Source: a virus
Taxonomy: Duplodnaviria > Heunggongvirae > Uroviricota > Caudoviricetes
Direction: 5' to 3' (one strand)
Virus record (IMG/VR): IMGVR_UViG_2585427750_000020
DNA length: 10,372 nt
Shown: in pieces, positions 8,927-9,171 of the stretch
Layout of the letters: each line of letters begins with the position of its first letter
Position numbering within the stretch: the stretch's first letter is position 1
Made by a program: the position numbers and the translations under genes
The notes under the pieces: generated by a model
What the model saw: only the letters and a program-made list of their open reading frames with translations
What the model was told of the DNA's origin: nothing
Database searches by the model: none

Positions 8927-9134
8927 TCTGTCCCCCTCTCCTGTCTGATGTCTGAATCTGTTTATGCCCCAAAAACGACAGGCCCCCCGGAGGGTGCCTG
9001 TGTCATGACGGAATAAAATTTCTGAATTTCTTCACATTTTCTGTACGCCCCCGTGGCAGATATCATTCCCGGGCGTTACAGTTTTTTCGGGCCAATAAAA
9101 ACAAAACTCCCTGTGGTTAATCTTCATTTTCTGT

Positions 9135-9170
9135 TCCCGCAGCCTTCGGTCACTGCGGGATTTTTTCGCT
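9135..9170 (+). terminator. Terminator-like hairpin with a U-run only in the plus (antisense) orientation, in the I-J spacer
   Basis: Stem TCCCGCAG (9135-9142) pairs with CTGCGGGA (9153-9160) around a 10-nt loop, followed on the plus strand by TTTTTTCGCTTTT. On the minus strand it is preceded, not followed, by the run. Confidence 0.45.
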
Positions 9171-9171
9171 T

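Follow-up and report, generated by a model that had tools for sequence, protein, structure and literature searches.

A probable PasB/EcOnc22-24-type small-RNA gene on the strand opposite the tail genes, in the I-J spacer of a lambda-like phage sequence

The I-J junction and its sense-strand hairpin

The window, that is, the whole stretch of 10,372 nucleotides analysed here, carries the tail genes I and J on its minus strand, with a gap of 245 bp (8927-9171) between them. The original prediction had singled out this spacer as unusually long, and the gene coordinates bear it out; the lambda spacing of about 60 bp given there was also right, since in the lambda record (NC_001416) gene I ends at 15444 and J starts at 15505, leaving exactly 60 bp (15445-15504). 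The genes and the elements belonging to the tail-operon strand are as follows.

5450-8926, minus strand: tail tip/host-specificity gene J, with six GpJ-type Pfam domains
8927-8970, minus strand: J leader, read from the sequence, with a Shine-Dalgarno region (GGAGAGGGGGA, 8931-8941) and 7-nt TCAGACA repeats
8971-9004, minus strand: hairpin in the tail-operon sense, stem 8978-8987/8992-9001 and U-run 8975-8971, just upstream of the J ribosome-binding site
9172-9852, minus strand: tail assembly gene I (Pfam Lambda_tail_I, E = 3.7e-16)

The part of the spacer next to J (8927-9005) is an ordinary I-J junction, consisting of a lambda-like sense-strand hairpin and the J leader, in which the number of TCAGACA repeats differs among phages. 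A second inverted repeat, proposed earlier around 8977-8998, is indeed present at 8978-9001, together with a U-run on the minus strand that had been overlooked. ACAGGC (8978-8983) pairs here with GCCTGT (8996-9001), with inner CCC/GGG, to form a stem of 10 bp, with one mismatch in the window allele, and a 4-nt loop (dG -20.7, z -1.97), followed by CGUUUUUGGGG or, in other alleles, by UGUUUUUGUG. Across nine alleles, 96.7% of cells were paired and covariation was not significant. Because the repeat is followed by the minus-strand U-run GUUUUUGGGG, it looks like a sense-strand intrinsic terminator of the tail operon, or else an RNA stabiliser, and Q-antiterminated late transcription would pass through it. 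The 60-bp gap of lambda has a hairpin at the same position (AAACCGCC-TGCG-GGCGGTTT, then TGTCATTTAT), likewise on the sense strand, GC-rich, followed by a T-rich tract and directly upstream of the J ribosome-binding site, although its sequence is unrelated and the rest of the lambda gap is empty. We know of no function assigned to the lambda hairpin. The left hairpin of the window is missing from the classes of gaps of 342-344 bp and 848-851 bp.

Folding the whole spacer on either strand gave structures no better than those of shuffled sequences, and the Rfam 15 covariance models yielded no match in the I-J gap at E ≤ 1; their sole match in the window was Atu_C8 at 5397-5516, at chance level.

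A predicted plus-strand RNA module related to PasB and EcOnc22-24

The rest of the spacer is occupied by elements on the opposite strand, which include these parts of a predicted RNA.

9088-9167, plus strand: predicted small-RNA gene of about 80 nt, the window allele of the PasB/EcOnc22-24 family, placed by alignment to the ends of PasB
9117-9127, plus strand: conserved single-stranded core TTAATCTTCAT, candidate seed, the most conserved stretch of the RNA body in both of our alignments (A1 and A2)
9135-9166, plus strand: Rho-independent terminator, stem 9135-9142/9153-9160, 10-nt loop and U6 at 9161-9166

The terminator corresponds to the base with the 8-bp GC-rich stem and plus-strand-only T-run on which the original prediction was centred, with TCCCGCAG (9135-9142) pairing with CTGCGGGA (9153-9160) ahead of six Ts at 9161-9166. 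Folding of 9130-9167 gave a dG of -14.0 kcal/mol (z = -3.05), which was equalled by 3 of 200 shuffles; a simple terminator scan had missed the hairpin because it allowed loops of up to 8 nt. With RNAalifold on 24 distinct alleles, the terminator was the only conserved helix, and two of its seven pairs showed compensatory changes, a covariation contributed by two related divergent alleles. For this hairpin and for the left one, covariation statistics are weak because the stems hardly vary.

An RNA with the same position and orientation has been described in EPEC. PasB (pathogenicity-associated sRNA B) comes from prophage PP6 of strain O127:H6 E2348/69 (Pearl Mizrahi et al. 2021, PMC8550237) and maps to NC_011601 1466261-1466343, minus strand, with a size of 83 nt by northern blot and RNA-seq (PMC8550237 Table S6), its 5' end being taken from RNA-seq coverage and not from 5' mapping. 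We found that PasB sits in the PP6 gap between I and J, which spans 240 bp, on the strand opposite both genes, and that its ends (1466343 to 1466261) align to positions 9088 and 9167 of the window. In both cases the 3' end lies 5 nt from the stop codon of I, the terminator combines a CCCGCAG/CTGCGGG stem with a U-run at the 3' end, and the RNAs, of 83 nt and about 80 nt, share a conserved upstream block and the core UURAUCUUCAU; identity over the RNA is, however, 72%, with differences in the 5' half and in the terminator loop. The northern probe used for PasB, AATCCCGCAGTGATCGCGGAGCT (PMC8550237), is complementary to the terminator hairpin in PasB-type alleles.

Likewise, EcOnc22, EcOnc23 and EcOnc24 are sRNAs identified by Hfq-CRAC in, respectively, prophages Sp15 (Stx1), Sp14 and Sp11 of EHEC O157:H7 Sakai (Tree et al. 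2014, PMC4104026 Table S2), and EcOnc22 is about 85 nt long on northern blots and destabilised in a delta-hfq mutant (PMC4104026). Published Sakai coordinates need a shift of about +137 bp for use with the current RefSeq record; we derived this shift (+134 to +143, from NC_002695.1 to.2) from the displacement of known sRNAs, and it is further supported by EcOnc42, which is intergenic only when shifted. After shifting, the CRAC peaks of EcOnc22-24 lie between I and J in Sp15, Sp14 and Sp11, antisense to these genes, and cover the region homologous to the window RNA body, an assignment that depends on the shift, as coordinates taken as published would put the EcOnc22 peak on the left hairpin; we rejected this last placement in view of the displacement of the known sRNAs in NC_002695.2. 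These loci share with the window the I-J site and strand, the terminator stem and the core motif, and agree with it at about 95% of positions in the left half of the gap, but EcOnc22 and the window allele show only 62% identity over the RNA. Two other Sakai candidates, EcOnc33 and EcOnc54, are not located at I-J junctions.

Other prophage sRNAs were also compared. The anti-sRNAs AgvB and AsxR, like other sRNAs of PR' morons (Tree et al. 2014), resemble the window RNA in being short, Hfq-binding and prophage-encoded, in combining a conserved 3' portion with a 5' portion that varies, and in being non-coding cargo at a fixed lambdoid insertion site. They lie, however, downstream of PR' and not in the tail operon, their sequences are unrelated and they have no Rfam match in the window, so we rejected an identity with them. 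PasA, PasC and PasD were discarded as counterparts for their different context, near lysis and esterase genes.

A profile of the whole module, built from 28 modules with the window-type allele excluded, matched 9007-9167 with E = 1.7e-32, and an RNA-only profile of the family, also without the window allele, matched 9085-9166 with E = 6.4e-14; the window contains exactly one module. Over 9006-9168, copies at 100% identity to the window occur in E. coli E2865 and in phages 2851 and phi330. Its layout, a plus-strand module in the gap with I and J on the minus strand, is the same as in E2348/69 and Sakai. Identity over the RNA among alleles is 62-73%, and about 30-40% of the body positions of the window RNA do not agree with PasB and EcOnc22; nonetheless, this divergent allele retains the terminator stem and the single-stranded core UUAAUCUUCAU. 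Judged from its sequence, the window RNA is thus a new variant of the already described, little-studied PasB/EcOnc22-24 family. The core is unpaired in the consensus fold and lies just 5' of the terminator, and its position as a candidate seed agrees with the seed proposed by Zhu, Shabalina & Storz in a 2026 preprint.

Conservation of the core also bears on whether the spacer might encode a small protein on the tail-operon strand. Two minute minus-strand ORFs of 31 and 34 aa, already noted in the original prediction, are present at, respectively, 9032-9127 and 8962-9066, and the 31-aa ORF starts inside the conserved ATGAAGATTAA, with a weak GGGA about 7 nt upstream. Nevertheless, this ORF is not conserved, because its ATG reads ACG in many homologous gaps; the length and frame of the ORFs vary, the body sequence is free, and the conserved motif is explained as the single-stranded core of the RNA on the other strand. 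We consequently rejected the ORFs as an explanation and regard a coding role as highly improbable.

Promoter-like elements upstream of the RNA

Upstream of the RNA, the module contains four candidate elements of transcription initiation.

9018-9039, plus strand: CRP-like site ATTTCTGAATTTCTTCACATTT, half-sites 9021-9025 and 9032-9036, centre 9028.5
9054-9059, plus strand: putative weak -35-like hexamer TGGCAG, 17 bp upstream of the candidate -10, with invariant G-T-x-G columns in alignment A1
9061-9066, plus strand: second conserved TATAAT-like box (P1), TATCAT here and TATAAT in PasB alleles, recognised by its conservation in A1
9077-9082, plus strand: candidate -10 TACAGT (P2), 6 nt upstream of the position aligned with the 5' end of PasB

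In 37 distinct modules, the promoter-like and CRP-like elements are found at fixed spacing. The TAnnnT of P2 has an invariant first T and A and a nearly invariant final T (at least 90%), and in the P1 columns of A1, A60 is invariant and A57, T58 and T61 are nearly so. P1 is degenerate in module 3 of locus L102, which retains P2, and it may be either a tandem promoter or a spacer element; its sequence in the window is weaker than that in PasB. Because the two -10-like boxes are conserved and only 16 bp apart, the 5' end of the window RNA is uncertain by about 10-15 nt, and could be near 9073 if the upstream box were used. The -35 of the window is poor and no promoter passed a consensus scan over 8600-9500; still, a weak sigma-70 promoter formed by the hexamers at 9054-9059 and 9077-9082 probably starts plus-strand transcription near 9088-9090, with the hairpin at 9135-9160 and its U6 terminating the transcript to give an RNA of about 80 nt.

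Further upstream, the half-sites of the motif T(C/A)TGA-N6-TCACA are invariant in the 37 modules, except for the second base of the left one (C; A in locus L083), and the flanks are conserved as well. Since the whole upstream block is conserved, this invariance is only modest evidence for CRP binding. Compared with the consensus AAATGTGA-N6-TCACATTT, the window matches 13 of 16 positions and many alleles match 14, against 12 for lac; allowing up to one mismatch, TGTGA-N6-TCACA matches once in the 10-kb window, for an expectation of 0.40, and at least once in 64 of 200 shuffles, so that this match taken alone is not significant. In class I CRP promoters, the centre of the site lies around -61.5 or, among other positions, -71.5. 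In the window, the distance from the centre of the site to the -35 is 25 nt, as in lac P1, and to the -10 it is 48 nt (49 in lac), which with the 17-bp spacer places the centre at about -60.5 if transcription starts at 9089. The upstream site may be of class I and activated by cAMP-CRP, centred some 60.5 bp before the start. It resembles that of lac P1 in its 22 bp, in the same centre-to--35 distance and in the weak -35, and differs in the left half-site (TCTGA instead of TGTGA) and in the spacer (17 instead of 18 bp). A class II geometry with respect to the TATAAT-like box was rejected, because the distance is 32 nt and not 29, that is, 3 bp off.

These elements, together with the detection of the RNAs, bear on the suggestion that the hairpin is a mere insulator, stopping stray antisense transcription from J into I and producing no discrete functional RNA. 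The strong plus-strand terminator and the negative consensus scan would fit such a role. However, northern blots of two alleles show discrete, Hfq-binding RNAs of 83-85 nt ending at the hairpin, promoter-like elements are found at a fixed distance in the 37 modules, and tandem arrays repeat the whole unit and not the hairpin alone. We therefore consider an insulator very unlikely. Among the roles that the original prediction had put forward for the main hairpin, the 3' end of an antisense RNA turned out to be right and can be made more precise, as it appears to end an autonomous small-RNA gene of the PasB/EcOnc22-24 family, while a barrier to antisense transcription and an RNA-stability element did not find support.

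We also considered a small RNA on the minus strand, made up of the conserved block and the left hairpin, and rejected it because at L102 every tandem module comes with its own copy of the block and because the 343-bp class retains the block without the hairpin. In addition, the minus strand has no TAnnnT box, and the part of the RIL-seq tables that was searched has no sense-strand intergenic entry.

Distribution of the family and possible roles of the RNA

Searches in complete genomes of E. coli retrieved the family from 1238 of 5426, in about 4155 copies; no RNA annotation lies under the family match among the RefSeq matches listed, and the family is absent from Rfam. One genome, that of E. 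coli 2014C-4587, contains an array of four tandem modules. Each of the four tandem modules at L102 has its own conserved upstream block, -10 and terminator, which indicates that the block belongs to the RNA gene. In other phages, the I-J site is taken or shared by sodC, by a second terminator unit or by tandem small-RNA modules. A scan of genome contigs with the N-terminus of J yielded no new alleles and only lambda-type J copies, in which the gap is 60 bp long or absent. These comprise six loci in unrelated genera, which look like lambda contamination, one fragment of 419 bp and three prophage loci of Shigella flexneri.

A moron, in the sense reportedly given to the term by Juhala and colleagues in 2000, is an added piece of DNA, with a promoter and a terminator of its own, that separates two genes lying side by side in related phages. 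In lambda and lambda-type Shigella prophages the junction is 60 bp long and lacks the module, so the 245-bp block is not universal and constitutes an insertion relative to that form, and the module of the window carries promoter-like elements and a terminator. Taken together, the data make it very probable that 9006-9168 (about 165 bp) is a self-contained small-RNA gene, a non-coding moron lying in reverse within the tail operon.

The block could instead be the decayed scar of a larger cargo such as a sodC cassette, in line with the lost insertion contemplated in the original prediction. Indeed, 11 of 80 related loci carry an antisense sodC in a gap of 848-851 bp that ends in the same small-RNA body and terminator. 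Yet the 234-260-bp form retains a complete, conserved unit from promoter to terminator, and the family occurs at thousands of places; furthermore, neither the CRP-like block nor the left hairpin is present in the sodC form, pointing to alternative cassettes and not to a parent and its remnant. A scar is thus hardly credible, and the extra DNA is best seen as a live insertion relative to the lambda junction.

What is known of the function of the family comes from PasB and EcOnc22-24. In the 2021 work of Pearl Mizrahi and colleagues, the non-activating medium was reportedly LB, and the activating one glucose-containing DMEM. PasB levels are higher in the non-activating than in the activating condition, a circumstantial fit with cAMP/glucose-dependent control by CRP, and the log2 fold change in delta-hfq is -6.8 in the activating and -2.4 in the non-activating condition (PMC8550237). 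RIL-seq recovered 37 interactions of PasB, including those with ler, perB, bfpB, bfpI, ftsZ and galE, and its baseMean of 482 compares with 4.8 for I and 15 for J (PMC8550237); expression in the lysogen is documented for PasB only. The targets of EcOnc22-24 were listed as unknown in a 2021 review. By analogy, we infer for the window allele that it would be transcribed in lysogens, at a time when the tail genes are off, and that the RNA would be bound and stabilised by Hfq and pair in trans with host and virulence mRNAs. The body of the predicted RNA is unstructured and A/U-rich, with ARN-type motifs, and has the single-stranded core just 5' of the terminator.

A mainly cis-acting RNA is a further possibility, in which pairing with the late tail mRNA, or collision of transcription, would lead to RNase III cleavage and affect the I:J ratio or the timing of tail assembly. 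Between I and J, the RNA and that mRNA are fully complementary, the gene is enclosed by the tail operon, on the other strand and 5 nt from the I stop codon, a placement kept in every fetched locus with a locatable end of I and a family module, and for PasB a common target motif was not reported and the seed is only predicted (Zhu, Shabalina & Storz 2026 preprint). But the RNA overlaps neither a coding sequence nor the J ribosome-binding site, some 150 nt away, and lambda and phages of its type, whose 60-bp junction holds no module, still assemble tails. Besides, PasB is abundant in lysogens with almost no expression of I and J, and its Hfq-dependent chimeras involve unlinked mRNAs. Allele bodies diverge freely and up to four different modules are stacked in tandem, a pattern that fits trans-acting cargo better than a regulator of the tail operon. 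We thus consider a mainly cis-acting role unlikely.

With trans-acting cargo as the preferred reading, we tentatively propose, as a possibility that we would not yet favour, that the I-J junction is a docking site for modular, stackable, Hfq-dependent sRNAs of cAMP-CRP class I type, whose alleles, that of the window included, would wire carbon status to different host and virulence mRNAs. If so, each module would have an invariant promoter and terminator around a diversifying 5' body, and would occur in tandem arrays or in fusion with sodC; PasB and EcOnc22-24 would represent two alleles within a single large family, carried by about a quarter of the E. coli sequenced, with up to 10 copies per genome. 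The invariant CRP-like site with lac-type geometry suggests a possible, testable link between sugar availability and the small-RNA output of prophages that carry Shiga toxin or effectors. As the hairpin is explained by an element of known type, this is not a new kind of biology.

The identification of PasB from EPEC and EcOnc22/23/24 from EHEC as alleles of a single small-RNA family, sharing one site in prophages, is apparently unpublished: we found no publication linking them, the PasB row of PMC8550237 Table S6 has no note on an EHEC homologue, and EcOnc is not mentioned in the Zhu, Shabalina & Storz 2026 preprint. The original prediction had overlooked the conserved promoter region, the lack of conservation of the small ORFs and the earlier experimental detection of the family RNA. 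In a megablast survey of bacterial genomes (word size 28, at least 75% query coverage), PasB was mostly found in one copy and was characteristic of strains other than EPEC and EHEC (Zhu, Shabalina & Storz 2026 preprint), whereas window-type and EcOnc22-type alleles are multi-copy in STEC. With only 62-73% identity between alleles, these types were probably missed by that survey, and the copy numbers found here indicate that the family is much larger than megablast surveys suggest.

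The I-J junction and its predicted antisense small-RNA gene

The window holds the minus-strand distal end of a lambdoid prophage, in the order K, I, J, lom and tail fibre gene, followed by type III effector genes (OspG/NleH-like kinase; Cif) and then an IS transposase:

Minus strand, upstream of I in gene order: K (NlpC/P60)
9172-9852, minus strand: I (Pfam Lambda_tail_I)
5450-8926, minus strand: J (Pfam GpJ domains)
1275-1898, 2122-3012 and 834-1244, all minus strand, coordinates given jointly: Cif, OspG/NleH-like kinase effector and IS transposase fragment

Exchangeable effector loci of this type, here with Cif, the kinase and the IS, are typical of lambdoid prophages in EPEC/EHEC. 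A weak match to Rfam Atu_C8, a Rhizobiales small RNA (5397-5516, minus strand; 24 bits vs a threshold of 50, E = 0.34), extends over the J stop codon and the terminator-like hairpin plus U-run that closely follows J; the terminator by itself almost certainly accounts for it.

As originally noted, I and J are separated by 245 bp (8927-9171) containing two tiny minus-strand ORFs, and the lambda gap (NC_001416), put at about 60 bp, measures 60 bp. The hairpin coordinates were also exact: TCCCGCAG (9135-9142) pairs with CTGCGGGA (9153-9160), followed on the plus strand by T6 (9161-9166), with a folding energy of -14.0 kcal/mol (z = -3.05 vs shuffles). About 100 records of long-tailed Stx1 and Stx2 phages contain the 245-bp block at 98-100% identity. 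Megablast found it in 779 of 5426 complete E. coli genomes; none of the matches listed has an annotated feature beneath it, and an Rfam search of the block found no family.

In EPEC E2348/69, the small RNA PasB is encoded on the minus strand from 1466343 to 1466261 (83 nt) and was probed in northern blots with AATCCCGCAGTGATCGCGGAGCT (Pearl Mizrahi et al. 2021, PMC8550237). This interval lies inside the I-J gap (240 bp) of prophage PP6, runs antisense to the two tail genes and ends 5 nt from the I stop codon; the probe is complementary to this same terminator hairpin. Likewise, the Hfq-CRAC peaks EcOnc22, EcOnc23 and EcOnc24 of EHEC Sakai were assigned to prophages Sp15, Sp14 and Sp11, respectively, as plus-strand RNAs of ca. 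85 nt by northern that are destabilised in a delta-hfq strain (Tree et al. 2014, PMC4104026), and on the current RefSeq sequence their listed coordinates place them in the three I-J gaps, on the strand opposite the tail genes. That study used NC_002695.1 and the current record is NC_002695.2, where AsxR, EcOnc03 and AgvB are +134 to +143 bp off their listed peaks, the identical repeat pair EcOnc10/EcOnc12 gives a shift of +137 to +141 at 2.23 Mb, and EcOnc42 is intergenic only after shifting. Once shifted, the EcOnc22-24 peak spans GCCTGAAAAATAACTCCATAACGTTAATCTTCATCGTTCTCTCCCGCAGCTCCGCTAAC, the I-proximal half of the gap, and runs into the conserved terminator. The displacement of Table S2 of Tree et al. 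2014 against NC_002695.2, ca. +134 to +143 bp, was seen at 1.27, 1.77, 1.94 and 2.23 Mb, and its unshifted coordinates indicate wrong features on that record.

Aligned on the window, the PasB ends correspond to 9088 and 9167; over the RNA, the window sequence is 72% identical to PasB and 62% to EcOnc22, which are themselves 73% identical. A profile HMM of 28 distinct modules, leaving out the window-type allele, matched a single module in the window (9007-9167, E = 1.7e-32), the RNA-only profile matched with E = 6.4e-14, and none of the lambda-type loci examined carries a module. Because the EcOnc22-24 and PasB sites, the alignment and the HMM matches converge on the same element, the main hairpin is, as judged from sequence, the predicted Rho-independent terminator of a PasB/EcOnc22-24-family gene, in keeping with the 3' end of an antisense RNA, one of the options originally offered.

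Conserved anatomy and candidate promoter

For comparison we used 80 IMG/VR loci with J N-termini 96-99% identical to that of the window, plus loci from E. coli genomes. The 37 distinct modules aligned well, with the following plus-strand elements invariant or nearly so:

9013-9038: ATAAAA, then T(C/A)TGA-N6-TCACATT
9053-9056: G-T-x-G
9061-9066: TATAAT-like box
9077-9082 (candidate -10 in the window): GTTAnnnT
RNA body: AACTCC and TTAATCTTC(A/G)T
9135-9166: terminator

Free variation is seen in the 5' part of the RNA and in the terminator loop. When 24 distinct RNAs were folded jointly with RNAalifold, the terminator stem was the sole predicted helix; two of its 7 pairs change in a compensatory manner in the divergent alleles L083 and L102m2. 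The body is unstructured, an arrangement typical of simple Hfq-dependent small RNAs. The conserved core 9117-9127 coincides with the PasB seed proposed in a 2026 preprint from the Storz laboratory (Zhu, Shabalina & Storz), where this seed is only predicted. It also contains the start of the 31-aa minus-strand ORF, whose ATG is ACG in many alleles, arguing that this putative ORF is not a gene.

A promoter consensus scan of the region returned no strong promoter. Since the 5' end of PasB, as given by RNA-seq coverage, and the EcOnc22 peak start lie 6-10 nt downstream of the conserved TAnnnT, TACAGT (9077-9082) is most likely the -10 of the module, with TGGCAG (9054-9059) as a weak, inferred -35. 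An inverted repeat with A/T flanks, TCTGA-N6-TCACA, is invariant and agrees with the CRP consensus at 13-14 of 16 positions (12 of 16 for the lac site in MG1655); 0.4 such matches are expected by chance per 10 kb. The repeat is centred 25 nt upstream of the -35, identical to lac P1, and 48 nt from the -10 (49 in lac), a spacing constant in almost all modules; with the start inferred from alignment, this corresponds to a putative class I geometry centred at ca. -60.5, which would also account for the weak -35. Conservation covers the entire upstream block, not the CRP-like half-sites alone. Higher PasB levels have been reported for the non-activating culture condition than for the activating one. 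These media are reportedly LB and glucose-containing DMEM, respectively, which would fit catabolite control. In all, we give CRP activation of this promoter slightly less than an even chance.

The second conserved box (9061-9066) reads TATCAT in the window and TATAAT in PasB alleles. The -10 that agrees with the RNA 5' end is 16 bp further downstream, and the second box could be a tandem promoter yielding an RNA of ca. 95 nt; relative to this box the CRP-like site would be at ca. -44.5, which fits no promoter class.

The J-proximal hairpin and the mode of action

A second inverted repeat, originally placed around 8977-8998, is present at 8978-9001. On the tail-operon strand it folds into a hairpin (10-bp stem, 4-nt loop; dG -20.7) that precedes CGUUUUUGGGG (UGUUUUUGUG in other alleles). 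Across 9 alleles, 96.7% of cells retain pairing and covariation is not significant; the one mismatch of the window stem opposes C8984 and T8995. Position 8984 is C in the window and A in every other aligned allele, giving a C.T (sense-strand A.G) mismatch mid-stem. The 60-bp lambda gap is essentially one hairpin, AAACCGCC-TGCG-GGCGGTTT then TGTCATTTAT, in the same position before the J Shine-Dalgarno although unrelated in sequence. The suspected insertion thus probably comprises the I-proximal ~165 bp, a putative small-RNA moron, whereas the J-proximal ~80 bp appears to be the ordinary I-J junction. The sense hairpin, which the 343-bp and 851-bp gap classes lack, could be an attenuator ignored by Q-modified polymerase or a 3'-end stabiliser. 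Between it and the J Shine-Dalgarno, the J leader (8941-8956) carries a 7-nt micro-repeat, TGTCTGA (TCAGACA on the J strand), of variable copy number: two in the window and four in L037, a locus with a 260-bp gap.

PasB is abundant in lysogens (baseMean 482-1082, vs 5-15 for I and J), drops 100-fold without Hfq and forms Hfq-dependent chimeras with ler, perB, bfpB, bfpI, ftsZ, galE and others (PMC8550237); EcOnc22 crosslinks to Hfq, on which its stability depends (Tree et al. 2014, PMC4104026), and a 2021 review gives the EcOnc22-24 targets as unknown. By analogy, the window allele would be a trans-acting, Hfq-dependent regulator made in the lysogen from its own promoter, with a target set shifted by its divergent 5' body and anchored by the shared core. 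Its perfect complementarity to the tail mRNA makes a cis action possible, but less likely than one in trans, given that the J ribosome-binding site lies outside the RNA, the module is missing from lambda-type phages, RNA bodies diverge freely and modules stack in tandem.

Family size and cargo of the junction

A sensitive search found the family in 1238 of 5426 complete E. coli genomes (4155 places; median 3 and maximum 10 per genome) and in 116 phage records. We found no statement in the literature that PasB and EcOnc22-24 are one family: the PasB row of Table S6 (PMC8550237) has no EHEC-homologue note, and the 2026 preprint mentions neither EcOnc, promoters nor CRP. The family is already described, if barely characterised, and the window copy is a new allele; known biology explains the puzzling spacer, and some of the detail is new and testable.

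I-J gaps in the comparison loci fall into classes of 234-260, 342-344 and 848-851 bp. E. coli 2014C-4587 (L102; NZ_CP027342.1; locus positions 1201-2109) has a 909-bp gap with four different tandem PasB-like modules, each with its own CRP-like block, -10 and terminator, the second with a covarying stem (CCCGTCAATA / TATTACGGG); RefSeq annotates nothing in this gap. In the 342-344-bp class (L034, L068 and 19 more IMG/VR loci), ca. 190 bp replace the J-proximal part, including the sense hairpin, and end with their own antisense-strand terminator, AACCCCGGTATC-AGCA-GATACCGGGGTT then TTTCTTTC; this stretch may be another antisense small RNA, unrelated to the PasB-like module and located upstream of it. 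The 848-851-bp class (L013 and 10 more IMG/VR loci) carries an antisense, separately terminated sodC ORF (Cu,Zn superoxide dismutase) and after it a PasB-like body and terminator; this PasB-like copy retains the TAATGT -10 but not the CRP-like block. With sodC beside a PasB-like copy, the I-J junction is a general cargo hot spot.

Lambda-type J copies also occurred in assemblies of unrelated genera (Neobacillus, Kitasatospora, Chromatium, Leeuwenhoekiella and others; L091-L095 and L099). These look like phage lambda contamination; the one locus checked, L091 from Neobacillus, matches lambda exactly over the 60-bp I-J gap.
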